Under the pieces are notes generated by a model, which was not told the origin of the DNA, made no database searches, and saw only the letters and a list, made by a program, of their open reading frames with translations. A DNA stretch of 64,000 nucleotides from an uncultured virus (IMG/VR IMGVR_UViG_3300021375_000010) (lineage: Duplodnaviria > Heunggongvirae > Uroviricota > Caudoviricetes): the IMG/VR virus record IMGVR_UViG_3300021375_000010; one strand, written 5' to 3'. This document shows, in pieces, positions 5,288 to 61,815 of the stretch (the first letter of the stretch is position 1; the number at the start of each line of letters is the position of its first letter). Made by a program: the position numbers and the translations under genes.

Positions 5288-7795
5288 ATGGATTATTATA
5301 CAAACGTATGTCGTACACGTGACAAGATTCTCGTTCGAGGATATCAAGGTAACAAACAAGTCAAGCACAAGATTGACTACAGACCCAAACACTACATTCC
5401 ATCTAAGAAAGGCGAGACACCGTTTCGTTCACTAGATGACAGACCACTTGAAGTTGTAGAACTCAACTCAATGGGTGGTGCAAGAAAGTTCCGTGAGAAA
5501 TATGATGGGACTGCTGGATTTGAAATCCATGGATATGACAGATATATCTACACATATATCGCAGAGAAATTCCATGGAGACATAGAGTTCAATTCAAAGA
5601 ACATCAAAGCAGCGGTACTTGATATTGAGTGTGAGTGTGAAGACGGATTCCCCGAACCAAGATATGCCCAAGAAAAGATAAACGCAATTACAATCAAACC
5701 GATTGGTAAACCAGCACATGTATTTGGAATAGGTGACTGGAATCACGGTAAAGATTATGTGTATTATCCTTGTAGAGATGAAGCACATCTCATGACTGAG
5801 TTCATGAAGTATTGGAGAACAGAAAACTTTGATATTATCACAGGTTGGAATGTAAACTCATTCGATATTACATATATTTGTAACAGAATTGATAGACTCT
5901 TCGGCGAAGGAGAACACAAGAAGTTATCTCCATGGGGTATGAGTGATGTGAGAGAGTTCACCACCATGGGTTATCAAAAACAAATGATTTTTACACTCTA
6001 TGGTGTTAATGTTCTTGACTATCTCGAACTATATCGTAAACACACATTCGTCAATCAAGCATCATACAAACTAGACCATATTGCTGAGGTAGAACTAGGT
6101 AAGAAGAAACTAGACTATTCAGAACATGGGTCATTACATACACTATACAAACAGGACTATCCAAAGTTCTTGGAGTATAATGTGATGGACGTTCTTCTCG
6201 TTGAAGAACTAGATGACAAACTTGGATTCATCGAACTTACAGAGACGATGGCATACAATGCTAAGTGCAATTATGCAGATGTATTTGGTATGGTTAAGTA
6301 TTGGGAAACAATCATATACAACTTCTTAAAAGAACAGAAGATACAAACACCACCACAACAATTGAGAAGAAATGGTGACAAAATCAAGCCGATCGCTGGT
6401 GCATATGTAAAAGAACCACAGGTTGGTGGTCACAATTGGGTCATGTCTTTTGATTTAAATTCACTATATCCTCACTTGATTATGCAGTTTAACATTTCAC
6501 CCGAAAAGATGGTGAATGGTATGAGACAGGATGTTAACGTAGATAAAATGTTAAACAAAGAGTGTAACCTAAATGAAGTGTATAAATTAGGACACACTGT
6601 TACGCCAAACGGAGTAATGTTCAAGAGAGATAAACAAGGATTCCTTCCCGAACTTATGGAAAAGTTCTATGATGAACGTAAGGCATGGAAGAAGAAGATG
6701 ATTGGATATCAGAAAGAACTTGAAACTGTTTCTGATAATGTACAACGTAAAGAATTAGAAACAAAAATCAAACATGCATACAACAATCAACAGGTCAGAA
6801 AGATTGCACTCAACTCTGCTTATGGTGCTCTTGCTAATCAATACTTTGCATTCTTTTCTATCGACCTCGCAGAGGCGATTACTATGTCGGGTCAGTTGGC
6901 CATCAAATGGGCAGAGAAAACCATCAACGATTATCTAAACGAAGTTTTAAAGACTAAAAAAGATTATGTTATCGCAATGGATACAGACTCGGTCTATATC
7001 ACAATGGATGCATTGGTACAACAAGTACTACCCGATGCATCTAAAGAAGAGGTTGTTGATTTTTTATGTAAAGCTGAAGTTCAACTAGAGAATATCCTAG
7101 AAAAGGGATTCATTGACTTTGCAAAATACACGAATGCATTCCAACAGAAGATGGAGATGGGACGTGAGGCGATTGCAGACAGAGGTATATGGACTGCTAA
7201 GAAACGCTACATACTTAACGTTCATGACATGGAAGGTGTGCGGTTTGCTAAACCTAAACTTAAACTCATGGGTATTGAGACTGCAAAGTCCAGTACACCA
7301 CAATGGGTAAGAACCCGTCTTGAAGAGGCGATTAAGATTGTCATGCAAGGTGATGAGGAACAATTATGGGATTACGTAGAAACTGCACGTAAGGAATTCA
7401 GAGAGTTACCACCCGAGAAAGTATCATTCCCTAGAGGTTGCAACAACCTTGCTCAATATAGTAACATGAACACTGTTTACACTAAGGGAACACCAATACA
7501 TGTCCGTGGTGCTTTACTATTCAATCACCACCTAAAGAATAAGAATTTAGATAGACGCTACGAGACAATCAAGGAAGGTGACAAGATTCTTTTCTCATAT
7601 CTTACACTACCAAATGTGTTTAATGAGAATGTGATATCTTATGTTGGTACACTTCCAAAAGAGTTTGACTTACACAGGTTCATAGACTATGACATGCAGT
7701 TCAACAAATCATTCTTAGAACCTCTAAGAAATATTGCAGAACGTATCGGATGGCATACAGAACCTGTTGCATCTTTGGATAGTTTCTTTTCATGA
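5288..7795 (+). CDS. 43: Family B DNA polymerase (gp43)
   Basis: DIE exonuclease, SFDLNSLYPH, KIALNSAYG, DTDS, KKRY motifs; uninterrupted. Confidence 0.98.
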   Translation: MDYYTNVCRTRDKILVRGYQGNKQVKHKIDYRPKHYIPSKKGETPFRSLDDRPLEVVELNSMGGARKFREKYDGTAGFEIHGYDRYIYTYIAEKFHGDIEFNSKNIKAAVLDIECECEDGFPEPRYAQEKINAITIKPIGKPAHVFGIGDWNHGKDYVYYPCRDEAHLMTEFMKYWRTENFDIITGWNVNSFDITYICNRIDRLFGEGEHKKLSPWGMSDVREFTTMGYQKQMIFTLYGVNVLDYLELYRKHTFVNQASYKLDHIAEVELGKKKLDYSEHGSLHTLYKQDYPKFLEYNVMDVLLVEELDDKLGFIELTETMAYNAKCNYADVFGMVKYWETIIYNFLKEQKIQTPPQQLRRNGDKIKPIAGAYVKEPQVGGHNWVMSFDLNSLYPHLIMQFNISPEKMVNGMRQDVNVDKMLNKECNLNEVYKLGHTVTPNGVMFKRDKQGFLPELMEKFYDERKAWKKKMIGYQKELETVSDNVQRKELETKIKHAYNNQQVRKIALNSAYGALANQYFAFFSIDLAEAITMSGQLAIKWAEKTINDYLNEVLKTKKDYVIAMDTDSVYITMDALVQQVLPDASKEEVVDFLCKAEVQLENILEKGFIDFAKYTNAFQQKMEMGREAIADRGIWTAKKRYILNVHDMEGVRFAKPKLKLMGIETAKSSTPQWVRTRLEEAIKIVMQGDEEQLWDYVETARKEFRELPPEKVSFPRGCNNLAQYSNMNTVYTKGTPIHVRGALLFNHHLKNKNLDRRYETIKEGDKILFSYLTLPNVFNENVISYVGTLPKEFDLHRFIDYDMQFNKSFLEPLRNIAERIGWHTEPVASLDSFFS

Positions 7796-8469
7796 AAACC
7801 CATATCATAACAATAATGGACTTGTACGAGAGTGTGGAGTCTGCTATTACGTGTGCAAACACATGTGCATTACATGGTGTCACTGCACAACTCTTTCCTG
7901 CTACAACGCCAGACGATGACCCACATGAAATTATTGAAACAATACTTGGAAGAAAGATAAGCACAAATGTTTTACAAATGGAACCAAGACCCGAAAGAGT
8001 ATTATCATGTCTTGCATCTCAAATGAGATTGTGGAATTCGTGTGTTGAAGTCGATGAAGATTTTCTAATACTAGAACACGATGCAAGAATGATTACACCC
8101 TTGCCTGATATAGAAGTAGATGGGGTTATCAGTCTTGGTAAACCATCTTGGAACAAAGAATTGGCAGACAGTCTAGAGTGGGAAGATGGACTGAACGTCA
8201 TGACAAATACGAACAGACCATTTCTTGGTAACCATGCAATCATGATGAGTCCTACAGGTGCAAAACAAATACTAGATAAAATGAGAAACCCCGAATTTAG
8301 ATGGTTGCGCCCAGCAGATATGATGATGACACCTGCTATGATGGGAGAAGGATTGTTGAAAGAGTATTATCCATTTCCATTCGATGTACAGGAGACATTT
8401 ACAACTGTACAGAGTGGTAAAAGTATTGGTGTTAAAAATTATGTGCCAGTAGATTATAAGGTATTATGA
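7792..8469 (+). CDS. Glycosyltransferase family 25-like
   Basis: FPATTP, SCLASQMRLW, LILEHDA motif. Confidence 0.75.
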   Translation: MKTHIITIMDLYESVESAITCANTCALHGVTAQLFPATTPDDDPHEIIETILGRKISTNVLQMEPRPERVLSCLASQMRLWNSCVEVDEDFLILEHDARMITPLPDIEVDGVISLGKPSWNKELADSLEWEDGLNVMTNTNRPFLGNHAIMMSPTGAKQILDKMRNPEFRWLRPADMMMTPAMMGEGLLKEYYPFPFDVQETFTTVQSGKSIGVKNYVPVDYKVL

Positions 8470-9209
8470 AAAACTTTTTAAAGACATTTGTAATCACACT
8501 CAAAAACAATATACGTTCTATCGAATCTTCTAATAAAACTATATACAGTGCATTGAAACATGGAATGGTAGATGTGCAAAAGTTTACTGCAACGGAACCA
8601 TCCGATTGGAAGATAGTATTGAGTAATGGAAATAATACCACATTCAATGAGTATCCAAATCCCGATGCTGTTGGTGCTTGTTTTGCATCCCACTATAGAT
8701 TATGGAAACATTGTGTTCATCTCAACGAACCTATTCTTATTTTAGAACATGATGCTTTATTTGTGGATTCACTTCCTTCATTATCTCAAGAAGAATGGGA
8801 GTGTATTACTTTCGGCAGACCATCATATATTAAGATGTCAGAAGTCGACCATACTAGTATACCACAAAACGGGCTGAGTGAACTGAAAACTCCACATATG
8901 CTCGGACACCATGCATATGCATTAACACCCAAGTCTGCTAAAGAATTTATAAGAGATGTACAGAGTGGAGAAAGACCACTAGAACCAAATGATTTGTGGA
9001 TGACTAAAGAACACTACCCACACTTACTAGAGTATTACCCGTTCCCTATCATAGCAGACACAGAGTTCAGTACAGTACAGGGTGTCCCAACAAATGAAAG
9101 ATTAGTCTCAGAGTATAACAAACAACCGACCATGGAACAATTTAGATTTATAAAGAAATATTATCCACAGTGTTTTGACCGTCAATCTTTAGAATTTATA
9201 AAACCATAA
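8466..9209 (+). CDS. Glycosyltransferase family 25-like (paralog)
   Basis: ACFASHYRLW, ILILEHDA, GHHAYALTP; colinear with upstream gene (EYYPFP...FSTVQ). Confidence 0.8.
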   Translation: MKNFLKTFVITLKNNIRSIESSNKTIYSALKHGMVDVQKFTATEPSDWKIVLSNGNNTTFNEYPNPDAVGACFASHYRLWKHCVHLNEPILILEHDALFVDSLPSLSQEEWECITFGRPSYIKMSEVDHTSIPQNGLSELKTPHMLGHHAYALTPKSAKEFIRDVQSGERPLEPNDLWMTKEHYPHLLEYYPFPIIADTEFSTVQGVPTNERLVSEYNKQPTMEQFRFIKKYYPQCFDRQSLEFIKP

Positions 9210-9211
9210 AT

Positions 9212-9631
9212 ATGAACATGTATCAATATAATGTAAAAATTTCTAAAGTGGTAGACGGAGATACGGTGGACGTGGACATCGATTTAGGATTCAGTACGGT
9301 TCTTAAAAAACAAAGAGTACGTATGATGGGCATCGACACGCCTGAAAGCCGCACAAGAGATTTAGTAGAAAAAAAATTCGGAAAAGCTGCAAAAGCACAT
9401 CTGAAGGGTATATTAGATGCAAAACAAATTACCTTAGTGTCACATGACAAAGGAAAGTTCGGAAGAATTCTTGGAGAACTTTTTGTCAATGGTGAAGAAA
9501 TATCAGTGAATCAGAGAATGATTAACGACCACCATGCTGTGCCTTATACTGGGGATAATAAAGACTTAGTAGAGGACATGCATCTCAACAACCGAAAGGT
9601 TTTGTTGGAGAACGGCACAGTTGAACTATGA
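9212..9631 (+). CDS. Thermonuclease (SNase-like) family nuclease
   Basis: VVDGDTVDV, RVRMMGIDTPE, GKFGRILG. Confidence 0.88.
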   Translation: MNMYQYNVKISKVVDGDTVDVDIDLGFSTVLKKQRVRMMGIDTPESRTRDLVEKKFGKAAKAHLKGILDAKQITLVSHDKGKFGRILGELFVNGEEISVNQRMINDHHAVPYTGDNKDLVEDMHLNNRKVLLENGTVEL

Positions 9632-40515: not shown

Positions 40516-40521
40516 GGCTAC

Positions 40522-40620
40522 ATGATAAAGAAATTAAGAAATAACGGTCTGCTTGATGCGGACTTCCTTCAACCCCTACTATGTCTTATGGTATTAATCA
40601 TCCTAGGAGAAGTGTTATGA
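40522..40620 (+). CDS. Leaderless 32-aa membrane peptide
   Basis: MIKKLRNNGLLDADFLQPLLCLMVLIILGEVL; ATG 6 nt after -10. Confidence 0.45.
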   Translation: MIKKLRNNGLLDADFLQPLLCLMVLIILGEVL

Positions 40621-40847: not shown

Positions 40848-40862
40848 TGGTATAATTACTGT

Positions 40863-41230: not shown

Positions 41231-41254
41231 AAAAATAAAGATTGAGAGGATTTT

Positions 41255-41749: not shown

Positions 41750-41865
41750 ACGTAGTAGGGTATACCATGTATAATGGTATTATATTAACCGAAACTGGTT
41801 TTATTACACTGGTGACTCATAAGGCACCTTCACAATAAATCAGATTCACATTTAAGGAGACGAAT

Positions 41866-43350: not shown

Positions 43351-43352
43351 TT

Positions 43353-43721
43353 ATGGAAGTTATGACCTACACCAAGAAAGCAACACTCGAACGTCTTGAA
43401 CGACAATCCGCTGGAGAGACAATTGAAAAACTTGTCAATAAAATTAAAAACTGGCACTACGATAGAAACCTTATTGATGGTGCTACGGATAAAGACCAAG
43501 TGTGTAAACTCATTCAAGAGGTGGGTGAACTATCTGATAACGTTTGTAAAGAACGTGACGTTGCAGATGACATTGGTGACATCATGGTAGTGTTAATTAA
43601 TATTGCCGAACGTAATGGGTTATCTTTACGTCATTGTCTTGAAGTTGCATACTCTGATATTAAAGACCGTAAAGGTAAAATGATTGATGGTATTTTTGTA
43701 AAAGAGTCAGATGCAGAATAG
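43353..43721 (+). CDS. mazG: MazG-like nucleotide pyrophosphohydrolase
   Basis: KLIQEVGEL, DDIGDI, AYSDIKDRKG...DGIFVKE. Confidence 0.88.
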   Translation: MEVMTYTKKATLERLERQSAGETIEKLVNKIKNWHYDRNLIDGATDKDQVCKLIQEVGELSDNVCKERDVADDIGDIMVVLINIAERNGLSLRHCLEVAYSDIKDRKGKMIDGIFVKESDAE

Positions 43722-44250
43722 TAATTTAACAAGTCAACGTTGGAATCCGCCTGCTGATTGGATTAGTGAGGCGGGTTTTAATACCCACTGGTTTGGTTTA
43801 ATTGATTTAATTATTTCACTTAAACATCAAGGTGTACAGAATGCATCTATGATTGAGATAGGAACTAACCGTGGTGAGAGTACAGCACTCTTTGCCATGA
43901 GTGGTTTATTTAAACAGATAACAACAATCGATATTGCATTTAAACAACGTGCATACGATACAAATATTTTTAATAATATTAAATACTTAACGGGTGACAG
44001 TAAAACCGTACATAGTATTTTTTATAATAATTCAATAGATTTTATTTATATTGATGGTGACCATTCTTACGAAGGTGTTAAAGCAGATATAAATAATTAC
44101 TTTAACAAACTTAAAAAAGATACTACATCTTTTATTGGTGGTCATGATTATACAAATGAATGGCCTGGCGTTGTCTCCGCTGTTGACGAGACGTTTCCCG
44201 AAAAGACGAAGCAGAAATTTAGTGACGGTTCTTTTCTTATTAAAATATAA
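43711..44250 (+). CDS. Class I SAM methyltransferase (Methyltransf_24-like)
   Basis: IEIGT..GES, DFIYIDGDHSYEGV..D, GGHDY...WPGV. Confidence 0.85.
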   Translation: MQNSNLTSQRWNPPADWISEAGFNTHWFGLIDLIISLKHQGVQNASMIEIGTNRGESTALFAMSGLFKQITTIDIAFKQRAYDTNIFNNIKYLTGDSKTVHSIFYNNSIDFIYIDGDHSYEGVKADINNYFNKLKKDTTSFIGGHDYTNEWPGVVSAVDETFPEKTKQKFSDGSFLIKI

Positions 44251-44263
44251 CTAGGAGAATATT

Positions 44264-45031
44264 ATGAGATTTAATATACCAAACCCTAACGTTGTATCTA
44301 TTGGAGGTTCACAAAATGAAGAACCGCAATCGACACAATATCAAGAACCCAAGATTGTTAATGAAGTTGAGTCAACTAGACAAGTGGCAGAAGAAGAAAG
44401 ACCAAATCAACCACCCGCCAGAGTTAGAGATATCGAAATCATTAATAATGTTTTTTCGCCAGAGTGGTGTGATGAACTTGTTTCGTACATGGAGAAGCAT
44501 CCATCAATCGGACAAGGAAGTGTCGGATACCAACAAGGAGAAGAAGAACGAGGACGTATCAACGAAGAAATAAGAAACTGTACAACTGGTTGGTTGGATG
44601 TATCATGTGATTATTCTAATCAAATGTTTAATGAAGTGTTACACCAAATGAAAATGACAAACATGTATACCTTTGGATTTGATTTGGAAAACATTGAAAT
44701 ACCACAGTACACTCGTTACGATTATGTCGAAGGTGGTGCTGACCAACACTATAACTGGCACATTGATTCATACCTAGGTGGTATGGGTACACGTCATGAC
44801 CGCAAACTGAGTGCAAGTATTCAGTTAACAGACCCTAGTGAATATGAAGGTGGGGACTTGTTAGTTGGTGATGATGCTCGTATGGTAGAAGACCCACACA
44901 TGGCAGAGGCAATGAGACAAAAGGGAACAGTAATATTCTTCCCATCATTCCTTAGACATTGTGTTACACCTGTTACTAGAGGTTCACGTAGTTCCCTAGT
45001 AGTATGGGGTGTTGGCCCAGACTGGAGATAA
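44264..45031 (+). CDS. PKHD-type 2OG-Fe(II) hydroxylase
   Basis: YNWHID, RKLS, YEGGDL, FPSFLRHCVTPVTRG.R.SLV.W. Confidence 0.9.
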   Translation: MRFNIPNPNVVSIGGSQNEEPQSTQYQEPKIVNEVESTRQVAEEERPNQPPARVRDIEIINNVFSPEWCDELVSYMEKHPSIGQGSVGYQQGEEERGRINEEIRNCTTGWLDVSCDYSNQMFNEVLHQMKMTNMYTFGFDLENIEIPQYTRYDYVEGGADQHYNWHIDSYLGGMGTRHDRKLSASIQLTDPSEYEGGDLLVGDDARMVEDPHMAEAMRQKGTVIFFPSFLRHCVTPVTRGSRSSLVVWGVGPDWR

Positions 45032-51809: not shown

Positions 51810-53105
51810 ATGGCAGAACAAAATCAACCCCCATCACAGTTTGCTCAAGAGCAGGCCCCCGAAGTTTTAACTGAAACTCAACAAATACAAAAAAGAGTCC
51901 AAGACTTTAAGGTACAACTCGCTCCGAAGTCAGCACAAGCAGTTAGTGGTATTCTAGAAACTGGTCTAGCGAAAGGACAATACACTTTACAAGACTTAGA
52001 CATGTTAGTTGTAATTCGTGAAGAACTTACAAAAGGTATTATTGATTTTAATACAACTGTTCAGATTGCTGAGGCAAGACTTAAAGAAATTCAACAAGAA
52101 GAATACTTGCAGAGTGCTAACAAAGAAAATGAAATTAATCTTCTGCATCAGCAAGCACTTGCAGATGAGAGAGTTGCAAGGAAGAAGGCAGAAGAGGAAC
52201 TCAGAGTTCTCAAAGACATTTACGAGAGTCGTGTTAAGAACACCGCACCTGCTCCAGTTGAAGTAAAAGGCAATGCACCTAGTGTAACAGGTGAACCACT
52301 TGCAGAACGTCAACCAGTAGAACCACCAAAACCAACGGGTAAAACTTCACCAGCATTTGCAGCTGCTCGTGCATTGAATCCTGTAACTGCAACACAATCA
52401 CAGATTGATGAGTTCAGACCAAGTGGTACAACTACAGAAGAATTTATTGAGGAAGTTGAAAGAGTTAATGAAGTTGCTATCGCAGAGGAACTACTCACAG
52501 ACGAACCAATCTCAGAAGATAAAGAGTTTGTAGAAAAAGTTGAAGAGACTAAGAAGTCCTTTGCAGAGTGGACAGAGGAAACAGTAACTGAAGAAGACTT
52601 TACTGAAGAAGAACAACTAGAGATAGACTTCGCAATTCAAGATGATATTGACGAAGAAGAGTTTAACAATTCATTTGTTGACCCAGTGACTGCTGGAAAT
52701 GCTCCAAACATAAAAGCACAAATGCCCGATACACAACAAGTGACTGCACCATTAGATGCAAAACAGTTTGACACCGAAGAAGAGTTACTCGCAGATATGC
52801 AAGAACGTATTGACGAGGCAACTGAAGAAGCAGAAGAAGAGTACGATGAAATTGTTATTCCTAGTTCAGACGAACTGAACAGAATGACAAAGGCAAAGAT
52901 TGTCGAAGTTGCTGATGTATTGAATGATAAATTTAATGCTGGATTTAATGTGACTACAGAAGACACTAAGGCAAAGATGATTCTTGATTTCCAAGAACAG
53001 ACTGATGCCTTAATTGCAAAATTGCAAGATACTGGCGAGTTCGTAAGTGCAGACAATGAGGGTGAAAATGATTCCACAGATGTCAGAGACGGTGGCTACT
53101 TCTAG
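51810..53105 (+). CDS. Large acidic coiled-coil protein
   Basis: Glu-rich 431 aa; ACTAAATA box at 51685. Confidence 0.75.
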   Translation: MAEQNQPPSQFAQEQAPEVLTETQQIQKRVQDFKVQLAPKSAQAVSGILETGLAKGQYTLQDLDMLVVIREELTKGIIDFNTTVQIAEARLKEIQQEEYLQSANKENEINLLHQQALADERVARKKAEEELRVLKDIYESRVKNTAPAPVEVKGNAPSVTGEPLAERQPVEPPKPTGKTSPAFAAARALNPVTATQSQIDEFRPSGTTTEEFIEEVERVNEVAIAEELLTDEPISEDKEFVEKVEETKKSFAEWTEETVTEEDFTEEEQLEIDFAIQDDIDEEEFNNSFVDPVTAGNAPNIKAQMPDTQQVTAPLDAKQFDTEEELLADMQERIDEATEEAEEEYDEIVIPSSDELNRMTKAKIVEVADVLNDKFNAGFNVTTEDTKAKMILDFQEQTDALIAKLQDTGEFVSADNEGENDSTDVRDGGYF

Positions 53106-53529
53106 AGACTCAGTAGTCTTACCTGTAGCGATCGGCCAAATAAGTAATCAATATGTAGAACACTTTGAGAATATCAAAGATGATGTTTTACGTTTTAATT
53201 TACCCACAGAATACACAGTTAAACTAGGAACGAGATACGATATAGATGGTCTGTACTTATACACTAAGGACGATGTTATGCTTATCTCATCACTAGACTT
53301 AGGTCTAGGACAAGGAACAGATAATATAAGACTCGGCACCTTCTTAGCAAAGTCAAAAGGTAATCCGACATCTTGTATACTTTCAATACATGAGGACGAC
53401 CAGTGGTTAGCAGTTCCTAAACACTTTAGTCCATTCCAAGAAGGAGAGGAAATAAATTATGAGTACATTGAACAATATGAAGAAGATGGTGAATGGGTGG
53501 AACGACACCTTAGAATCACAAGGAAATAA
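53080..53529 (+). CDS. Hypothetical protein
   Basis: ORF fills gap; start uncertain. Confidence 0.6.
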   Translation: MSETVATSRDSVVLPVAIGQISNQYVEHFENIKDDVLRFNLPTEYTVKLGTRYDIDGLYLYTKDDVMLISSLDLGLGQGTDNIRLGTFLAKSKGNPTSCILSIHEDDQWLAVPKHFSPFQEGEEINYEYIEQYEEDGEWVERHLRITRK

Positions 53530-53532
53530 TAA

Positions 53533-54465
53533 GTGTCCGAAAATAGAAACATCCCAATTACAGCAGTTGACCAATATGATTTTCTCGAACATCGTAGAGG
53601 ACAAGAACAGAAACACTGGCAGAGAAAGAAAGGCACTCTAACAGAACTTGACTCTATTCTTACTGTAGAGATTAACACCACAGAACTCTGTAACAGAACA
53701 TGTGTGTTTTGCCCAAGACATGACCCTAAAGTATTCCCCAATAGAAACTTACACTTAACCATTAAAGGTGCAACCACGATTGCAGAAGAACTTGCCGACA
53801 ATGGATTTAACGGTAAGATATCCTTTAGTGGATTTGGTGAGAACTTACTTAACCCCGACTTCATAGAAATCGTAAGAGTGTTTAGGTTTAACTTACCTTA
53901 TGCAACACTAGAGTGTAACACTAACGGCGACAAACTAGATTCAGATTATGTCACAGGTTTGTACAAGAGTGGATTGGATTTGCTCTACATCAATCTGTAT
54001 GATGGTATTCATCAAATGGAAGGTTTTGATTACATGATGGCAGAAGCAAGAGTGCATGAAGACCAATACAGATACAGAATGCATTGGGGTGACTTTGAGA
54101 AACACGGACTGATACTAAACAACCGTAGTGGTGTAGTTGATTGGGTTGGTATCGAAGATGATAGTGTAGAGAATCTAAAAGGTAAACCATGTCACTACCC
54201 TTTCTATAAAATGTTTGTAGACTGGAATGGTGATGTGTTGTTCTGCTCTAACGATTGGGGTAGAGAACATGTCGTAGGTAATCTATTGACCATGTCCTTA
54301 CATGAAGTGTGGTTTAGTAAACCGATGACAAAGATTCGTAAGAGATTAATGAAAGGGAACAGAGAGATGTCCCCTTGTAACAAGTGTAGTGTCGATGGGA
54401 GTTTATTTGGTAAACAATCATTTGACCTAGTAAAGGAATATTATGAAAATCCTAATAACAGGTAG
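53533..54465 (+). CDS. Radical SAM protein with SPASM/twitch domain
   Basis: CNRTCVFC, GFGENLL, NTNG; C...GDVLFC..D...C.KC. Confidence 0.92.
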   Translation: MSENRNIPITAVDQYDFLEHRRGQEQKHWQRKKGTLTELDSILTVEINTTELCNRTCVFCPRHDPKVFPNRNLHLTIKGATTIAEELADNGFNGKISFSGFGENLLNPDFIEIVRVFRFNLPYATLECNTNGDKLDSDYVTGLYKSGLDLLYINLYDGIHQMEGFDYMMAEARVHEDQYRYRMHWGDFEKHGLILNNRSGVVDWVGIEDDSVENLKGKPCHYPFYKMFVDWNGDVLFCSNDWGREHVVGNLLTMSLHEVWFSKPMTKIRKRLMKGNREMSPCNKCSVDGSLFGKQSFDLVKEYYENPNNR

Positions 54466-55015
54466 TACAGGTTTAGCAAGAAACATTAGTGACACTTTTA
54501 CTTCTACACCATTTGCTGGTGGGATGAATATCGTTAACGAAGCACGTATTGAAGATTTGATGCTTTGGGAAGATTGGGAATGGCAGGAATACGATGTGTT
54601 TATCAACAATGCTTTCGGCGCTCCATTTGACCAGTGTGACTTGCTGGAAAAATCTTTCAATGCATATCGACATGATATGAAAAAGATTATCATCAACATA
54701 TCTTCACGTGCCTCACAACCAAACATATCCAAAGGTTACAAGTATGCAGCTGCAAAAGCGGCACTCAACCACATGTCTAACAATTACACATACAATTCAG
54801 ATAAGAAGTGTAAGATTACTACTATGAATTTAGGTTTAATCAATCATGAATTGCCTTCATTATCATATCAGTCAATCTCCAATGCTATTTGGTACCTTGC
54901 AACGTCATATCCCGATATTGAGATTCCCGAAGTGACTATGCAAGCACATGCAAACTATAACGAAGTGCAAAGTGATAAAGAAACTCTCAGAGACATGGAA
55001 AGATTCACTAAATAG
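54443..55015 (+). CDS. Short-chain dehydrogenase/reductase
   Basis: ITGSTG, INNA, NISS, YAAAK. Confidence 0.85.
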   Translation: MKILITGSTGLARNISDTFTSTPFAGGMNIVNEARIEDLMLWEDWEWQEYDVFINNAFGAPFDQCDLLEKSFNAYRHDMKKIIINISSRASQPNISKGYKYAAAKAALNHMSNNYTYNSDKKCKITTMNLGLINHELPSLSYQSISNAIWYLATSYPDIEIPEVTMQAHANYNEVQSDKETLRDMERFTK

Positions 55016-55019
55016 TACT

Positions 55020-55268
55020 ATGAGTATAGAATATAACGATTTTGGGTTCACTGCTATTGATGCAGATGAACTCGCATCCATCGATACAAAGATTGTTGAG
55101 AAAACAGTCGCATCCGCAACCGCCATTGCTAAGATGGACGATTTCATTCGTCCTCTTTTGGAGAATCTTATGAAAGATTCCGATAAAGACTACATCTACT
55201 GGCCCAATCGAGTTGAAATTCTTCGTAAGAAGTTAGACGAACTCGATGAAATTCAAAAAAGTTCTTAA
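55020..55268 (+). CDS. Conserved T4-like late hypothetical protein
   Basis: DFGFTA, PLLENL, YIYWPNR; ACTAAATA 5 nt upstream. Confidence 0.75.
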   Translation: MSIEYNDFGFTAIDADELASIDTKIVEKTVASATAIAKMDDFIRPLLENLMKDSDKDYIYWPNRVEILRKKLDELDEIQKSS

Positions 55269-55275
55269 AAACCCC

Positions 55276-55305
55276 TTTACATTGCCCCTCGCTTTTAAGT
55301 AGAAT
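55276..55305 (+). promoter_or_regulatory. Early-type promoter
   Basis: TTTACA-TTGCCCCTCGCTTTTAAG-TAGAAT. Confidence 0.65.
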
Positions 55306-55352
55306 ACACTAGTTAGATAAATTAACTGTGTATTTACCAAAAGGAGAAAAAA

Positions 55353-55616
55353 ATGATACAAAGTCAACACGAACTATCCCCACATGAACGAGCGTACACC
55401 GATTTAGGTCGCAAAATTATTCAAGAGTGTGAAAATAATACTATTTTCCCAAAGGATGATGAAGAGTCCCTAACATTGTGGAACTCTGCTGTGACAGCTG
55501 CAAACAAATTCATGTCTTTTGGTACAACATGGTCAAAATTTAATGGAATTGATGACTTAAGTAAAAATGAAAGACTTGCAGTCAAGAAATATCTTAATGG
55601 AACAGCATGCGATTAG
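55353..55616 (+). CDS. Hypothetical protein
   Basis: AGGAG RBS. Confidence 0.7.
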   Translation: MIQSQHELSPHERAYTDLGRKIIQECENNTIFPKDDEESLTLWNSAVTAANKFMSFGTTWSKFNGIDDLSKNERLAVKKYLNGTACD

Positions 55617-55786
55617 TAGTTGCAAGTTATGGTGATGTTGTAATCACCCAAGACCGTCTAAATGGTTACAAGCGATACATTGTTGACTGGCAGAACGGTA
55701 GTAAACAATTGTTTAGTGGGTTATATTACACATTAGATGATGTTAAGGAAAGAACAGAGAAGAGGATATCTTCTTTACCGATTTAA
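55607..55786 (+). CDS. Hypothetical protein (59 aa)
   Basis: Hand-translated MRLVVASYGD... Confidence 0.5.
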   Translation: MRLVVASYGDVVITQDRLNGYKRYIVDWQNGSKQLFSGLYYTLDDVKERTEKRISSLPI

Positions 55787-55902
55787 ATAGGGGTGCTTGA
55801 CACTCGGGTAGGGACAGGGTCAATAAAAACAAAATCTACAACTTATTATACGATGTTTGTTTGAGACCCATCCCGCCAGAATTTTTTTATTAGGAGTATA
55901 TT

Positions 55903-56208
55903 ATGGGCATGACAAGCCATTACGCTGGTTCACTTCGATACAGTATGAACGGCAAAAAACGAAAGACAAAATCTATGCGAACTCGCACAAAGAGGATGTC
56001 AGATTTTAATTGGGATACCCCACTCGTGGAACCCAAACCAGTTCGAGAGACTAAGGAATATCCTTCCGCTCCACTTGGTCTTCCGAAAACAAACGTAGAC
56101 GATTCATGGAAGGTAGAAGAGTCTAAAAACTTCACAATCGCACCCGCTTATAATAAAGGTGCTTATCAAGTCATCCCACGTGATGACGTTAAACATATAG
56201 GAAAATAA
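55903..56208 (+). CDS. Conserved T4-like hypothetical protein
   Basis: APAYNKGAYQVI; AGGAG RBS. Confidence 0.75.
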   Translation: MGMTSHYAGSLRYSMNGKKRKTKSMRTRTKRMSDFNWDTPLVEPKPVRETKEYPSAPLGLPKTNVDDSWKVEESKNFTIAPAYNKGAYQVIPRDDVKHIGK

Positions 56209-56211
56209 ACT

Positions 56212-56427
56212 ATGGAAAATTTAAACTTAATTAATTTTATGTTCTCAATCTTGGCACTATTTGCCTTTGGATTCGTACTGGTGGGCGCTTGGTTGCTCGT
56301 AGATGATTCATCTAAGATGTTCAATTTGCGAAAAGATTTGAAACGTAAATATCCCGATATGACTAAGGGTCAACTTCAAGCTCTGGCACGTCACCAGTAT
56401 GCTCAGTCCTTACAGGACAAAAAATAA
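56212..56427 (+). CDS. Small membrane-anchored protein
   Basis: N-terminal TM. Confidence 0.6.
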   Translation: MENLNLINFMFSILALFAFGFVLVGAWLLVDDSSKMFNLRKDLKRKYPDMTKGQLQALARHQYAQSLQDKK

Positions 56428-56429
56428 AT

Positions 56430-56459
56430 TTGACAAAGCCCCTCACTTTTTTATATACT
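56430..56459 (+). promoter_or_regulatory. Early promoter (repeat copy 1)
   Basis: TTGACA-AAGCCCCTCACTTTTTTA-TATACT. Confidence 0.8.
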
Positions 56460-56488
56460 ATACACATAGATTGAAAAAGGAGATACAA

Positions 56489-56860
56489 ATGAACGAGTTA
56501 GAAAAAAGAAATGTTGCGGAAACCAAAGCTATTGAACTAGTAGAACTAGTTGAGACTTTATGTGCAGATATTACTACTGCAATACACGAGAAGTGGGAAC
56601 ACACTCGTGGTGTAAAAACCCACGACTTTTCAATTGGAAAGAAATACATTCGTGTTTATTCAGTAGAGGATGGTCAACCTCGTTCAGTATGGGGGTTCAT
56701 CAATGTGGGCAACGATAAGTTCCAAGTTGGTGATGTGTTAAAAGCATCGGGTTGGAATCAACCCGCTCTTAATTCTGCCAGAGGTAACTTGTACGATGGG
56801 TATGAAATAGCAAAAGGATATTCTACTCACAGAATATTTGGGCCAGATTACTTAATTTGA
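56489..56860 (+). CDS. Conserved early hypothetical protein
   Basis: GKKYIRV, SVWGFI, GDVLKASGW..PA...RGN; AGGAG RBS. Confidence 0.75.
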   Translation: MNELEKRNVAETKAIELVELVETLCADITTAIHEKWEHTRGVKTHDFSIGKKYIRVYSVEDGQPRSVWGFINVGNDKFQVGDVLKASGWNQPALNSARGNLYDGYEIAKGYSTHRIFGPDYLI

Positions 56861-56886
56861 CAAAGCCCCTCACTTTTTGTTACACT
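56857..56886 (+). promoter_or_regulatory. Early promoter (repeat copy 2)
   Basis: TTGACA-AAGCCCCTCACTTTTTGT-TACACT. Confidence 0.75.
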
Positions 56887-56918
56887 ATGTGTATAATATA
56901 AATTTAGGAGAAAATATT

Positions 56919-57368
56919 ATGGGAATCAAACATAAACAAATTTTAGACGGTACTGCAAGATGGTACGTAGTTACTACTCAAAATGTTGAGGAGTACGGTG
57001 TGAACTTTCACAAGTTCAAGGGCGGTTCCGAGTACGTGATTGGTTTCCATGTTGAGAAGTGTATCTTCGAGGAGAACGCATATGGTGAGGGCGAACACTC
57101 ATATTATGAGGCGCCGTCTCTTACTGAGGCGTCAGTTGCTGCTCTCGTGATGAAACACGTGAACAGGTACAACGGATTGAACGGTTCGTTTGATTACATC
57201 ACTAACATTGAAGTGATTGATTCGCCTTTCAACACACCCGACCACCCAACGTGGGGTGGTGATGCGGAAACTCTCATTGAAGAGTTAGATGCAATTCACG
57301 ATAGTAAGGTTGCTAACGGAGAACTTGATGCTCCGTTTATGGAAGAAATTTATTCGGAGGCTGTATAA
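56919..57368 (+). CDS. Early hypothetical protein
   Basis: AGGAG RBS; TQ..E.YG...KFKGG.EY. Confidence 0.7.
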   Translation: MGIKHKQILDGTARWYVVTTQNVEEYGVNFHKFKGGSEYVIGFHVEKCIFEENAYGEGEHSYYEAPSLTEASVAALVMKHVNRYNGLNGSFDYITNIEVIDSPFNTPDHPTWGGDAETLIEELDAIHDSKVANGELDAPFMEEIYSEAV

Positions 57369-57721
57369 TGTATAGTATTAAAGAATTTGAAGTCCTTACA
57401 CTTGAAGAGAGTGTAGGTGGTACATCACTAAAGGGAAGCATCATAACCGATTACAACACTTTGTGTAATGTACTTGGTAAACCAACCTTCACAGATGCCG
57501 ACCCTAATGAGAAAGTTTCTTGTGAGTGGTGTCTCAAAGTTAAGTACTGGGAAGAAGGTGCTCATGCGGACGATTGGGAATACGCTGATGTTACAGTGTA
57601 TGCATGGAAGTATGGTTACATTCCAGTTGAAGAATGCATATGGAATGTTGGCGGTAACTCTTGGGAAGCTACTGATTTGATTGAAACGATTTTGGCGGAG
57701 GACATTGCTAATGCAGCTTAA
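57368..57721 (+). CDS. Early hypothetical protein
   Basis: GTSLKG...Y..L...GKP...KV..EW...W.VGG. Confidence 0.7.
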   Translation: MYSIKEFEVLTLEESVGGTSLKGSIITDYNTLCNVLGKPTFTDADPNEKVSCEWCLKVKYWEEGAHADDWEYADVTVYAWKYGYIPVEECIWNVGGNSWEATDLIETILAEDIANAA

Positions 57722-57968
57722 GGAATACAAAACTATGGAAGCGGAGTATGCTGGAGGCATTACACTTCAATTCAAGTTTGAGAATGGGTACGGTGCCAGT
57801 GTAGTGAAACATGATTTCAGTTACGGTGGTCAAGATGGTCTTTGGGAAGTCGCAGTACTTGACGAAGATTTACAGATATGTTACCATACACCTATAACAC
57901 AAGATGTTATTGGTTATCAGACGTGGAAACAAGTCGAAAAAATTTGTGAGGAGATACAATCATTATGA
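57711..57968 (+). CDS. Early hypothetical protein
   Basis: FENGYGASVV...SYGG..GLWEVAVL. Confidence 0.7.
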   Translation: MQLKEYKTMEAEYAGGITLQFKFENGYGASVVKHDFSYGGQDGLWEVAVLDEDLQICYHTPITQDVIGYQTWKQVEKICEEIQSL

Positions 57969-58162
57969 CATTTACTTTTGAACAAGCAAAACTTATTGCA
58001 TCCAGTACTGGTGGAAAGCTCAGTGCAGATGATGTGATGAATCTTGCAACTTATGGAACAACCAATGCTATGGACATGGCACCCGAAGAGGTGGGCGAAG
58101 GTTGTCCTTGTGGGGTGAAAAATTGCCCCGATGAATACGACCATGTCACACATGGAGTATAG
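57965..58162 (+). CDS. Small hypothetical protein
   Basis: ATGA coupling; CPCG..NC...Y.H...G. Confidence 0.6.
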   Translation: MTFTFEQAKLIASSTGGKLSADDVMNLATYGTTNAMDMAPEEVGEGCPCGVKNCPDEYDHVTHGV

Positions 58163-58163
58163 C

Positions 58164-59792
58164 ATGAAATATTTGTTAAGTTTAATATCCCTAACCATAT
58201 TAGTTGGTTGCGGAGGCGGTGGTGGAGCTGCTGGGGTCTTAACCCCTGTAGTCGCTCCTTCTGGCATAACCTATTACACAGGTTTTACCACAACCACTTT
58301 AGATGATGTCACTAACCAGTTTGTGGTTATTGATGGATACATCGAAGGTGCTAATGTGTTCCTTGATTGGAATTACAATGGTATTCAAGATACAGGTGAG
58401 GCATCAGCAAGTTGGATGGGTGTAGACCCTGTTGTTACTATTTGCACCAGTTACGATTCCCAAGGATGTATTGAGACTGGAACATATGACCCGCCAGATA
58501 ATTATTACTACTTTCTAACAAGGGAGTCTGAAGAATATGCACCAAGTGATTTCAATGGACAGTTTCTAGATGACAATATATCAGATTATTCATCCTACTG
58601 TAAATCATTAAGACCAGTGATGTCTGTGGTACCCGAAGGTGCTTATGATTCTGATAGGGGATATGTAGACACTGCATACGAAATGATGGCGATGCCAAGT
58701 GTATTGGAGAGGGACATTACTAACGGAACTAACATCACTCCATTCACAACATTAATCAATCCCCTCTTTTCATCTTTGATGGTAACAGATTATCCAATTG
58801 ATGAATCATGTAGCACAGGTGCTATATCTCAAGGCGAGAACATCGTCCAATCAATAGAACAGTACATCAATACATTTTTAGAAATGTACAATATCAGTTT
58901 AGATTTCTTCTATGAGGACTTCTTTAAATCCGAGGACGTTGCAAAACAACAATTAGCGATGGACATTGTTGACATCATATCAACAGTAACAACTGCTAAG
59001 GATATTTTAGAGGATACTGTTAACTTACCTTATAGGTATGTCTTTAGTGAAGGAGTCATGTCAGATGTTATGAGTGGCAATTTCACCACACTAGATTTTG
59101 ATATAAATCATAAAATAGAAGAGTCACAAGTGTTCAACGATTTAGTGACTTACTCAGAAAGTTTGTATAGTGGCATTACAACAGACAAAGATGGTAACCT
59201 ATATTCATATGAGGGAGACATCATCCCCATGTCATTTGGTAATATCTCTGTATCTGCTTCTAGTGTAGAAACATCCACAGTCCATCAAGCAACAAATATT
59301 ATGGGAATGGATGACGTACATCTTTATTCTACAGTTGCAAGTGGTTATGATAATGGTATCCTATCAGATACTAGTTTTACTAGAGTGCAATTCTCCAAAC
59401 CAAACTATTATAGGTCAATGCAAACCAATCAAAGAGGTAAACTTTTTTGGGTCACACATGACTATAGATTTTCTATTGCCTTTGGGCCTGGCAACCCTAT
59501 GGCCAACTTCAATACGAATTCTGTAGTTAACAATGGTGACTTGAATACCGCTCAAGATATTTTAAATTCCATCAATAGTGTATCACATTATATAGAAGAT
59601 GCTCAGAATACCATCTCATATTTGTACGCTGGTGATGAATTGCAGTATGCAAAAACAATTGACGGAATAGAATACACATATTCATACACCGTTGGTGGTG
59701 ACGAATTCTGTTTGACATATGACACTAGTACACAATCAGAATCATTCAATAGAACTAATCCTTATGTACAGTGTTCGGAGTTAATACAATGA
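58164..59792 (+). CDS. Large lipoprotein
   Basis: Lipobox LVGC-GGGGG; VIDGYIEGANVFLDWNYNG..D.GE; NITPFTT. Confidence 0.75.
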   Translation: MKYLLSLISLTILVGCGGGGGAAGVLTPVVAPSGITYYTGFTTTTLDDVTNQFVVIDGYIEGANVFLDWNYNGIQDTGEASASWMGVDPVVTICTSYDSQGCIETGTYDPPDNYYYFLTRESEEYAPSDFNGQFLDDNISDYSSYCKSLRPVMSVVPEGAYDSDRGYVDTAYEMMAMPSVLERDITNGTNITPFTTLINPLFSSLMVTDYPIDESCSTGAISQGENIVQSIEQYINTFLEMYNISLDFFYEDFFKSEDVAKQQLAMDIVDIISTVTTAKDILEDTVNLPYRYVFSEGVMSDVMSGNFTTLDFDINHKIEESQVFNDLVTYSESLYSGITTDKDGNLYSYEGDIIPMSFGNISVSASSVETSTVHQATNIMGMDDVHLYSTVASGYDNGILSDTSFTRVQFSKPNYYRSMQTNQRGKLFWVTHDYRFSIAFGPGNPMANFNTNSVVNNGDLNTAQDILNSINSVSHYIEDAQNTISYLYAGDELQYAKTIDGIEYTYSYTVGGDEFCLTYDTSTQSESFNRTNPYVQCSELIQ

Positions 59793-60292
59793 AAATGAGA
59801 CACTTAAGTTTTTTATCAGGCGCCTTGTTAGGTTTCCTGTGTGGTGTTATGACAATGAAGGTTGAGGCGTCAGACCCCAACGGAGAAATCTATTGCATGG
59901 CACAGAACATTTATTTTGAGGCAGGTAATCAACCACTCGCTGGTAAGATTGCTGTATCGCAAGTAGTGTTAAACAGGGTTGAACATTATGCTTATCCCGA
60001 TACTGTTTGTGGTGTGGTATACCAAGCAAAGTTGAGAACAAATTGGAAAGGTGAAATGGTTCCTAAAATCAACGCTTGTCAATTCAGTTGGTATTGTGAT
60101 GGTAAGTCAGACAACCCAGTAGACAGTGTAACTTGGTTATCCTCTATGCACATTGCAAGAGATGTGATACAATCTAAGTATGGTGACATTACAGAAGGTG
60201 CAACACATTATCATGCAACTTGGACATTACCATATTGGGCAGACTCATTGAACGAGACTGTGGTTATTAACGAACACATATTTTACAAATAA
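59789..60292 (+). CDS. Cell wall hydrolase (SleB/Hydrolase_2)
   Basis: CMAQNIYFEA, VVLNRV, CQFSWYCDG, GATHYHA, HIFY. Confidence 0.92.
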   Translation: MKMRHLSFLSGALLGFLCGVMTMKVEASDPNGEIYCMAQNIYFEAGNQPLAGKIAVSQVVLNRVEHYAYPDTVCGVVYQAKLRTNWKGEMVPKINACQFSWYCDGKSDNPVDSVTWLSSMHIARDVIQSKYGDITEGATHYHATWTLPYWADSLNETVVINEHIFYK

Positions 60293-60294
60293 TT

Positions 60295-60831
60295 ATGAAT
60301 TTATTTTACTTAGACAAAGACCCCGAAATCTCTGCAACACTACATTGTGATAAACATGTAGTAAAGATGATTATCGAGTACGCTCAGATGCTATCTACCG
60401 CACATAGAATGCTAGACGGTACTCAGTATACCGATGCATCTAGTGGACGTAGAATCCAAAGATGGGCGCTGAATGATACAAACATGGAAGATGTGTTATA
60501 TAAAGCATCCCATATCAATCACCCCTCTACTAGGTGGGTTCGTGAGAATGCAATTCAGTATCAGTATGCATATGATATGTTTACTGCACTGTGTGACGAA
60601 TACACTCACAGATATAAAAAGATTCATGCAACTGATTTTAAACTTAGAGTATTACTTAATCAGTTACCAAACAAGATTGCACTAGGTGAATGGTCAGAAC
60701 CGCCTCAGTGTATGCCAGACGATGTGAAGATGGAATCGACTCTCGATGCATACCATAAATACTATGCAGTCTACAAGAAGGAATTCGCAAAGTGGACAGA
60801 ACGTGACGTACCAACTTTTATGAGTTTATAA
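60295..60831 (+). CDS. denV: Pyrimidine-dimer DNA glycosylase-like (DenV family)
   Basis: MNLFYLD, HCDKHVVKM..E.AQML, H.NHP, PPQCMP. Confidence 0.75.
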   Translation: MNLFYLDKDPEISATLHCDKHVVKMIIEYAQMLSTAHRMLDGTQYTDASSGRRIQRWALNDTNMEDVLYKASHINHPSTRWVRENAIQYQYAYDMFTALCDEYTHRYKKIHATDFKLRVLLNQLPNKIALGEWSEPPQCMPDDVKMESTLDAYHKYYAVYKKEFAKWTERDVPTFMSL

Positions 60832-60832
60832 T

Positions 60833-61141
60833 ATGCCAACATACGATTTCTTAAATACCGAAACTGGTGAAGTGACAGAACACTTCATGTCTTACACTAA
60901 GTTAGACCAGTTCAAAGAAGATAACCCCCACTTAAAACAACAAATATGCGCCCCTAGAATTGTAGGTGGTCATGGTGACAGAGTTAAAGCGCCCGATGGG
61001 TTTAATGATGTACTTAAGAATATCGCCTCCAAAAATATCGACACTCCACTTGGGGAAAGATATCACAGAAAAGATGCTAAAGAAGTTAAGACAAGAGAAA
61101 CAATAAAAAAGCATATTGACATTCAAAGCAGAAAGAAGTAA
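60833..61141 (+). CDS. FmdB-like regulatory protein
   Basis: MPTYDF....GE, NPHL, DGF.DVL. Confidence 0.7.
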   Translation: MPTYDFLNTETGEVTEHFMSYTKLDQFKEDNPHLKQQICAPRIVGGHGDRVKAPDGFNDVLKNIASKNIDTPLGERYHRKDAKEVKTRETIKKHIDIQSRKK

Positions 61142-61155
61142 AATAGGTATATATT

Positions 61156-61815
61156 ATGATAGATTTACATGAACTAGAACTACTCGATATGAAAGCCGAA
61201 TCGGTGGACGGAAAGCGACTTTACGAAACACCCGAAGGTAATAAGTATCCAAGTGTCACAACTGTAACAGGTCTTCTTAACAAAGAACATATAAAGTTGT
61301 GGAGAGCTAGAGTTGGTGAACAAGAAGCGAATAAGATTACCGCACAGGCGACAAAACGTGGTACTAAGATGCATGACATCTTTGAAAAGTATCTTAGACA
61401 AGAAGAAGAAATTATCTTTGATAACATTCTTCAAGAACAGATGTTCAATTCCGCTTTACCCTTATTAGATGAAATCCAGCCGATCGCTCTAGAAGCGCCT
61501 CTGTATTCCGATACACTTAAGATGGCGGGAAGAGTGGATTGTGTTGGTCTATTCGAAGATAAACTTACAATCATTGATTTCAAAACATCAAGTAAGTGGA
61601 AAGAAGAATACATGGCAAAACCATGGTTTATTCAGATGACTGCTTACGCTATGATGGTTGAAGAGATGACTGGTTATGAAGTTGAGGAGATTCTTGCTAT
61701 TGTTGTAGTAGAGGGTCAAACAGGTGGTGTTCAGGCATTTGGGAGTTTTCCAAATGAACACGTTGATGAATTAGTTAGTTTACGAAAACAGTACACTAAC
61801 TTATACGGAGTATAA
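61156..61815 (+). CDS. PD-(D/E)xK exonuclease
   Basis: YPSVTT, RGT..H, AGRVDC, IIDFKTS, Q..AY. Confidence 0.88.
   Translation: MIDLHELELLDMKAESVDGKRLYETPEGNKYPSVTTVTGLLNKEHIKLWRARVGEQEANKITAQATKRGTKMHDIFEKYLRQEEEIIFDNILQEQMFNSALPLLDEIQPIALEAPLYSDTLKMAGRVDCVGLFEDKLTIIDFKTSSKWKEEYMAKPWFIQMTAYAMMVEEMTGYEVEEILAIVVVEGQTGGVQAFGSFPNEHVDELVSLRKQYTNLYGV

Follow-up and report, generated by a model that had tools for sequence, protein, structure and literature searches.

How does a phage genome from which a tetranucleotide has been removed almost completely come to carry this very tetranucleotide several times within one longer word? The question is raised by a stretch of 64,000 nucleotides (nt) of an uncultured virus of the class Caudoviricetes (IMG/VR record IMGVR_UViG_3300021375_000010), referred to as a whole as the window, in which every remaining GATC lies within the 10-mer GCCGATCGCT. 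This 10-mer forms the core of a longer, asymmetric 16-mer, WATYNR-GCCGATCGCT, with ~13 specified positions. The window was extended by record G001, which comprises 120,692 bases, is 99.98% identical to window positions 15,636 to 64,000 and continues for a further 72 kb, giving a joined sequence of 136,327 bases, and strain G002 (96% identical) served as the source for the remaining ~17.8 kb of the genome. The genome size is ~153 kb, and a related record of 152,961 bases exists. We interpret the motif as a cis site that was recently selected for recognition by a protein binding or cutting DNA in a sequence-specific manner, an interpretation of its function that in our judgement has an even chance of being correct.

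The scarcity of GATC is extreme. In the window it occurs four times (6391, 25045, 53130 and 61482), while dinucleotide-preserving shuffles yield 230.7 ± 14.1 copies with a minimum far above four. The preliminary description of the window had counted four GATC against roughly 200 expected, had assigned all of them to one 10-mer and had postulated strong selection against GATC; these statements are borne out, and the scarcity holds beyond the window. For the 136 kb, expected word counts were obtained from 300 synonymous-codon shuffles, and on this basis GATC occurs six times where 364 copies are expected, five being contained in the motif WATYNRGCCGATCGCT and one in GGGATCCG; the remaining ~17.8 kb of G002 contain none. 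Other palindromes are scarce in the window as well (CGCG 0, CCGG 7, AGCT 33), and in the 136 kb the observed and expected counts are 0 and 43 for CGCG, 12 and 96 for CCGG, 0 and 61 for GGWCC, and 129 and 423 for AGCT, compared to 536 and 496 for GANTC, 80 and 85 for GGCC, and 62 and 61 for GCGC. The purge is still active: if the 934 substitutions between the window and G002 are placed randomly, 16.5 GATC are created (minimum 6 in 500 trials), whereas two are seen, both of which are motif copies. Among 61 loci of close strains (542 kb) all GATC are either motif copies or a GGATCC in the capsid gene. There is continuing selection against GATC, CGCG, CCGG, GGWCC and partly AGCT in the phage and its relatives, and the loss of multiple palindromes is the usual signature of pressure by restriction enzymes or related nucleases. 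The sole GATC outside the motif belongs to the codons TGG GAT CCG (Trp-Asp-Pro) of the capsid gene gp23 (G001:C1:12046), and gp23 of phage Mosig (L412 25054-26403) has identical codons. This GATC is forced, since the synonymous codon GAC would give rise to GGACC, itself a purged word with 0 copies; at this tripeptide two rules of avoidance clash and the GATC rule gives way. Avoidable GATCs of the genome are consequently confined to the five motif copies.

The five copies are spaced 8–35 kb apart in the 136 kb and have the orientations +, -, -, + and + (three forward, two reverse), the 10-mer being located in the window at 6388 (+), 25042 (-), 53127 (-) and 61479 (+). Copy 1 (6382–6397, +; AATCAAGCCGATCGCT) lies in the gene of the family B DNA polymerase gp43 (5288–7795), where it reads ATC AAG CCG ATC GCT (I-K-P-I-A). 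Copy 2 (25042–25057, -) is located in an open reading frame (ORF) without family assignment at 24551–25414, the plus strand reading GCG ATC GGC TTG ATT (A-I-G-L-I), and copy 3 (53127–53142, -; TATTTGGCCGATCGCT reversed) in a further ORF without family (53047–53529) with GCG ATC GGC CAA ATA (A-I-G-Q-I) on the plus strand. Copy 4 (61473–61488, +; AATCCAGCCGATCGCT) is part of a PD-(D/E)XK exonuclease gene (61156–61815) and reads ATC CAG CCG ATC GCT (I-Q-P-I-A), and copy 5 (+; TATTGGGCCGATCGCT) lies within G001:C1:40170-41288 with the codons ATT GGG CCG ATC GCT. Forward copies accordingly encode I-x-P-I-A (ATY NNG CCG ATC GCT) and reverse copies A-I-G-x-I (GCG ATC GGC YNR ATW). AATCAAGCCGATCGCT occurs twice, as copies 1 and 2, and the flanks beyond ~16–17 nt are unrelated between copies. 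The longer matches given in the preliminary description, i.e., AATCAAGCCGATCGCTG at 6382–6398 and reversed at 25041–25057, AATCCAGCCGATCGCT at 61473 and TATTTGGCCGATCGCT reversed at 53127–53142, are all correct, as are its statements that the genes carrying the copies are unrelated and that rare codons are used, CCG accounting for 8.9% of Pro, GCG for 7.3% of Ala and GGC for 9.3% of Gly codons. The gene carrying copy 5 belongs to a region at ~93–108 kb of the extended sequence with several large structural genes that have a peptide repeat of ~18–20 residues in common, each in many copies, and repeated DNA words such as GCTAGACAACCT with up to 20 copies; the products are rich in Gln, Asn, Tyr and Pro, match no family and are probably fibres.

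A chance origin of the motif is excluded, since the 10-mer is present in five exact copies in the 136 kb compared to 0.05 expected and a maximum of 1 in the 300 synonymous shuffles. In the window, a search with up to one mismatch to the 10-mer retrieves the same four matches only (0.47 expected), a number reached in 0 of 100 shuffles. Two-mismatch variants occur 14 times in the 136 kb (21.9 expected), and CGATCG is absent outside the motif, while a plain exemption of CGATCG from the purge predicts ~7.8 copies with varied flanks. Across 173 ORFs the 16-mer could be encoded silently at five places, and all five are occupied; the degenerate half of the 16-mer pattern was derived from the same five copies and this part of the saturation test is not independent. 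The 10-mer alone could be encoded silently at 21 places, of which five are occupied, and the 16 unused places, e.g., ACCGATTGCT at 66252, are without the upstream WATY part. Viewed from the protein side, there are eight Pro-Ile-Ala and 12 Ala-Ile-Gly tripeptides, and it is the five with the extra Ile that carry the motif. Because both orientations, unrelated genes and rare codons are used and all five silent places are filled, the signal acts on the DNA and not on the protein. The codon phase shared by the five GATCs was considered as a further signal and found to be uninformative, as 224 of the 399 silent CGATCG places are in that phase. None of the sites has hairpin or cruciform potential (z-scores from -0.32 to 1.34).

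Comparison with outgroups shows that the motif was recently gained. At site 1, strains at least 98% identical read AAG CCG ATC, while AAA CCT ATY or different codons are present in the sister clade (~86%) and in ~70 additional relatives. At site 2 the sister clade has TCT ATA GGT CTA ATT in place of GCG ATC GGC TTG ATT in the window, which amounts to six changes in 12 nt including a change from Ser to Ala. At site 4, ATT ATG CCA ATC GCT is found in the sister clade and ATT CAA CCC ATT GCA in relatives of 78% identity, compared to ATC CAG CCG ATC GCT in the window, and at site 5 the outgroup reads ATT GGC CCA ATT GCA and the motif ATT GGG CCG ATC GCT. The motif is thus absent at sites 1, 2, 4 and 5 in the sister clade (~85% identity) and in more distant relatives; for site 3 no outgroup sequence was found. 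In codon-by-codon alignments the sites differ from the outgroup by 2–6 clustered, mostly silent substitutions without length change. Nine sister-clade loci of 80–86% identity were examined and contain no GATC, a set that is apart from L325-L327 (~93%), which the script had binned at 80–86% and which are strains of the phage's own cluster carrying site 5. By cluster we denote the species-level lineage with at least 95% nucleotide identity. In 351 non-cluster loci with 3.38 Mb there is no copy of the motif, and 224 of these loci are free of GATC. Because the motif is missing from outgroups and non-cluster relatives and GATC from the sister-clade loci, all five sites appear to have been newly made on one branch, between ~15% and ~4% divergence, in a genome free of GATC. 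The preliminary description had proposed a DNA-selected cis site that was kept despite the purge and that might be parS-like, a signal for packaging, injection or replication, or an operator sensitive to methylation: selection at the DNA level agrees with the filling of all five silent places, whereas the word kept does not apply to a motif that was newly created and is missing from the outgroups.

The 16-mer has 69 matching loci in IMG/VR, 21 of which represent this phage and 48 unrelated viruses; the latter number is about that expected by chance, and a wider viral use of the motif was rejected. One of the unrelated viral contigs (L032) has a repeated terminator-like hairpin that contains the 16-mer by coincidence. 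This dispersed intergenic hairpin repeat, CAATCCAGCCGATCGCTACGCTCCGGCTGATT, is present in several copies per contig in L032 and in L413, L435, L449 and L459/L460, which represent metagenome-assembled genomes of Syntrophaceae, Smithella and Bacteroidales.

Within the cluster two of the sites are still polymorphic. L073/L074 are without site 1, reading AAA CCT with three private changes within ~180 nt, and their gp43 is 99.76% identical to that of motif-bearing strains. L537 (~96% identical; the 152,961-base record) is without site 3 and its GATC, reading GCA ATC GGT with five differences in ~130 nt. These natural motif-less alleles are AAACCTATCGCT at site 1 and ACCGATTGCT at site 3, and both losses look like short recombinant patches from unsampled lineages without the site. 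The preliminary description had named two observations that would speak against a cis site: GATC in many other contexts was not found, whereas loss of the motif in close relatives, if taken literally, does occur in these strains. A stretch of 228 identical nt around site 1 between two lineages was examined as a sign of a selective sweep and is within the range for ~42 intervals. Contigs of three runs and one run of raw reads were compared over 52,500–62,000, and the differences listed include none in copies 3 or 4.

We infer that selection rather than biased conversion made the motif, that a protein reads it, and which role this protein has. One species-level lineage gained five 16-nt words in a GATC-free background by point substitutions in unrelated genes and in both orientations. 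The word was written wherever the encoded proteins allow, an amino acid change (Ser to Ala) being accepted at one site; according to our interpretation, more copies would be better, and coding constraints would cap the copy number. The GATC core would be part of the specificity of the reader protein and would be tolerated since the benefit exceeds the small cost per site. Its most likely use would be that of a loading site or of a programmed nick or break serving recombination-dependent replication or packaging.

The only candidate in view for a sequence-specific enzyme acting on the motif is a possible one, the DUF262-HNH nuclease encoded at 41866–43350 (+). Of the 494 amino acids of this protein, the N-terminal part resembles DUF262/GmrSD_N and the C-terminal part is of the HNH (endonuclease VII-like) type (Pfam HNH_4 E 1.2e-4 and GmrSD_N E 6e-4; PADLOC NsnA E 9e-9; PHROGs endonuclease VII / HNH). 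The preliminary description had listed it as DUF262/ParB-like; it combines a DUF262-like part with an HNH nuclease and is no partition protein of the ParB type. It shows 91–100% amino acid identity within the phage cluster and otherwise remote relatives only (35–38%); none of the sister-clade (85%) contigs spans the neighbourhoods of the carbamoyltransferase or the DUF262-HNH gene. In a more specific form of the proposal, the motif would act as a kind of zip code, a newly acquired enzyme, perhaps this nuclease, reading a 16-nt word written into every silent place, and the outcome would perhaps be programmed nicks or breaks from which recombination-dependent replication or packaging starts, or a conversion drive that spreads its own word; we consider this form unlikely. 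The surrounding region (40000–44300) has an odd, GC-richer composition (GC fraction 0.41, low AT skew) and also contains a YrrM-type O-methyltransferase and a MazG-like gene. Between strains whose neighbouring genes are 95–99% identical, identity of the nuclease drops to just 91%.

Several observations weigh against a selected recognition site or against its connection to this nuclease. No binding protein for the motif was identified, and what would tie the motif to the nuclease is lineage specificity within the sampling. L537 has the DUF262-HNH gene and yet is without site 3, so that there is no one-to-one link. Two kinds of strains survive without one site each, and single sites are therefore dispensable (site 1 in L073/L074, site 3 in L537). 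Two of 80 motif positions and 75 of 3000 flanking positions are segregating, a diversity too low to show purifying selection. Pile-ups of read starts or ends at sites 3 and 4 were not seen in the sole raw-read run, whose depth of less than 10 is too low to judge. Finally, site 1 matches site 2 completely over 17 nt, the degenerate positions included, despite their opposite orientation and different genes, which hints at copying instead of independent selection, and the total lack of one-mismatch variants of the 10-mer in the 136 kb (0 compared to 0.97 expected) also fits a one-step conversion.

The last two points keep conversion alive as a rival, and with it two live explanations have to be weighed, positive selection, which we favour, and conversion or repair bias. 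In the latter, biased repair or short-patch gene conversion would write the word, either by a methylation-linked mismatch-repair ratchet as proposed for HIP1, the highly iterated palindrome of cyanobacteria, or by ectopic copying of 10–17 nt from one dispersed copy to another, this T4-like phage being highly recombinogenic, and purifying selection on proteins would retain only those conversions that are silent or nearly so. Exchange of short tracts is active in the cluster, as the motif-less alleles of L073 and L537 each show exactly two changed motif positions and are embedded in patches of 130–180 nt. The reverse strand of the motif, GCGATCGG, is moreover one letter off HIP1, and one-off forms are intermediates in the model of Elhai (PMC4390886). 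However, the ratchet described there extends existing CGATCG rather than creating it (PMC4390886), while here CGATCG was made from CCTATC or GCAATC. The W, Y, N and R positions vary as the local codons require, which shows that no whole tract was copied, and at one site an amino acid change was accepted. A non-coding master copy was found neither in the 136 kb nor in the 17.8 kb of G002, and a gene for a CGATCG methyltransferase or a Vsr-like protein was not found in the phage. On the basis of conservation it was furthermore argued that selection and not biased repair maintains even HIP1 (Xu et al., PMC5861425). For these reasons selection is favoured, and conversion appears somewhat unlikely as the origin of the motif.

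Two further explanations assign the motif to the host or to no function at all. The phage could have adopted a word recognised by a host enzyme, as RecBCD/AddAB read Chi or the competence machinery reads uptake sequences, the copies having been gathered after a move to a host where phage DNA is protected or promoted by the word. Known Chi and uptake words, however, comprise 5–12 nt and have to occur frequently in the chromosome of the host, while ~13 positions are specified here. A search for AATCNAGCCGATCGCT in one genome per prokaryote species, which provides weak evidence, gave at least 123 matches, and among the matches listed are scattered singles from many phyla and no marine streamlined genome with several matches. 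The lineage-specific gain and the apparent benefit of more copies would suit a host word, three forward and two reverse copies fit a circularly permuted genome that is protected from either end, and methylated HIP1, which has a CGATCG core, was called reminiscent of Chi in Synechococcus PCC 7002 (bioRxiv 10.1101/2024.09.10.611283); altogether we regard such an adoption as improbable. The motif copies could also be neutral survivors without function if the purging agent were blocked in the motif context by an overlapping methylase or a bound protein. Survival of GATC does depend on context in relatives (HTVC008M, Mosig, and several uncultured phages that keep only GATCC), and the five CGATCG are close to the 7.8 of an unconstrained genome. 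Tolerance, however, explains survival and not the ~100-fold excess of a single 10-mer (5 compared to 0.05), and it leaves unexplained both the lack of CGATCG with other flanks and the several directed substitutions per site in a GATC-free ancestry, so that the data already speak against neutral survival, which is very improbable.

The phage itself is a marine myovirus that resembles T4 and falls within the pelagimyophage/Melnitz group. All genes are encoded on a single strand, and Pfam assigns T4-type replication, recombination, baseplate, tail, portal and capsid genes, many 2OG-Fe(II) oxygenases, ribosomal protein S21 and peptide deformylase, as well as curli CsgF/CsgG in strain G002. S21, deformylase and curli genes have been named as characteristic of pelagimyophages (PMC7029224). 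The capsid protein shares 68% identity with that of phage Melnitz (host OM43) and 65% with that of Pelagibacter phage HTVC008M, CsgG matches only Melnitz and HTVC008M, and the polymerase of the window has a best identity to an isolate of just 48%. The window stretch was found in contigs from runs of 14 studies of marine, estuary or reef waters. Immediately before the window begins, G002 (L170 4572-7769, 9431-11272) encodes CsgF, CsgG, a curlin-repeat protein, a FecR-domain protein and a CHASE2 adenylate/guanylate cyclase, and HTVC008M carries the same set of curli, FecR and CHASE2 cyclase genes.

In these relatives the palindrome purge is a clade-wide trait. Nearly all of 80 gp43 loci of relatives are without CGCG and CCGG, and most are without GATC, the others having normal counts. 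The purged set shifts between relatives, CGCG and CCGG being missing almost everywhere and GATC, AGCT and GGWCC being variable (loci L070-L149, L537-L616, L410-L412). The first 50 kb of Melnitz contain GATC 4, CGCG 0, CCGG 3 and GGWCC 0 times, and those of HTVC008M (L410) contain no TCGA (159 expected), 16 GANTC (159 expected) and 24 GATC, every one of which is GGATC/GATCC. All eight GATC of Mosig (1–50,000; L412) are GGATCC, and the surviving GATCs of the uncultured relatives L137, L139, L140 and L146 are all GGATC/GATCC; this survival rule differs from the context rule in the phage of the window.

By Pfam, no DNA methyltransferase was detected in the 136 kb or the 17.8 kb of G002, and no restriction enzyme was recognised in the phage; the sole methyltransferase-like gene (43711–44250) is the YrrM-type O-methyltransferase. 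A methylase beside gp43 was considered as explanation for GATC retention in relatives and rejected, as a scan of 39 ORFs, a selection out of 118, gave no clean correlation: an N6_N4 methylase is present beside gp43 in one GATC-free relative and a Mom-like gene in one, and none was seen there in GATC-rich relatives. The slot downstream of gp43 is occupied in the window (7792–9631) by two family-25 glycosyltransferases and an SNase-like nuclease, and in relatives by an N6/N4 DNA methylase (L078 6311-7216), a Mom-like gene (L126 5287-6126), a C5 methylase (Melnitz 4010-5227) and an adenine methylase (Mosig, where the record ends). The slot seems to be a hot spot of genes for DNA modification and anti-restriction.

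Functional words dispersed in genomes (Chi, uptake sequences, HIP1) are mostly old and saturated by the time they are encountered, and their origins are argued from indirect evidence. The motif described here is caught soon after its birth, with outgroups lacking it, silent places full and two sites still segregating, and since it contains a tetranucleotide otherwise forbidden in the genome it is easily scored in metagenomes. It offers a tractable system in which selection and biased conversion can be tested against each other as sources of such words and in which the reader protein can be sought. If a newly acquired enzyme indeed reads the word, a genome-wide viral cis signal would for the first time be observed as it emerges, while still polymorphic.

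How does the motif compare to known systems? Avoidance of GATC occurs in enterobacterial phages, and the literature found on phage GATC avoidance consists of general works only. The pelagimyophage and Melnitz papers make no mention of GATC or palindromes, and the word avoidance is absent from the Melnitz paper. The purge resembles restriction-site avoidance in phages by the near-total loss of GATC and of palindromes of 4–5 nt via silent codon choice, by its variation between close relatives and by its continued action in this phage (Rusinov et al., 2018, PMC6286503). It differs in that avoidance accounts for missing words and not for a new GATC-bearing 16-mer made five times, and in that the presumed hosts rarely carry restriction systems, which were reported in one of more than 100 SAR11 genomes (PMC7029224). 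A purge despite hosts nearly without such systems would point to either unrecognised host nucleases or phage-borne ones.

The closest likeness among dispersed words is found in the cyanobacterial HIP1, GCGATCGC (Elhai, 2015, PMC4390886; Xu et al., 2018, PMC5861425; Kamoku and Nielsen, 2024, preprint). A CGATCG/GATC core is common to the two words, and both were made by substitution in coding DNA rather than inserted, are lineage-specific and have no assigned function, and for both selection and biased repair are debated as the cause. HIP1 is a perfect palindrome of 8 nt that occurs about once per kb in cellular genomes, whereas the 10-mer and the 16-mer of the phage are asymmetric with the CGATCG core alone being palindromic, and occur about once per 30 kb (five in 136 kb). 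Genomes with HIP1 carry GATC and CGATCG methylases, while the phage bans GATC and no DNA methylase was detected in it. GCGATCGC itself is absent from the 136 kb, every CGATCG being inside GCCGATCGCT.

A parS/ParB system was suggested by the length of 16 nt, the palindromic core and a phage protein with a ParB-like (DUF262) N-terminal domain. parS sites, however, are palindromic throughout and clustered, while the phage sites have asymmetric flanks and lie 8–35 kb apart; the DUF262 protein carries an HNH nuclease and no recognisable DNA-binding part of ParB, and it is not evident why a lytic T4-like phage would need partition. Packaging (pac) sites inside genes are known from P22, where pac lies in the small-terminase gene, from T4 with pac-like words in genes 16/19, and from P1, whose pac contains GATC hexamers. 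They are likewise asymmetric sites of ~20 nt in genes, and P1 shows that GATC can serve a packaging signal. Normally there is one pac per genome at or near the terminase gene, whereas the phage has five motif copies in both orientations and none in the terminase region (small terminase at 115,445–115,864 of the extended sequence). Chi and uptake sequences, finally, are much shorter, far more frequent and defined by a known enzyme, but they share with the motif that they are dispersed, orientation-sensitive, over-represented and silent within genes and, as the motif would be, are read by a DNA-processing machine and serve the better the more copies there are.

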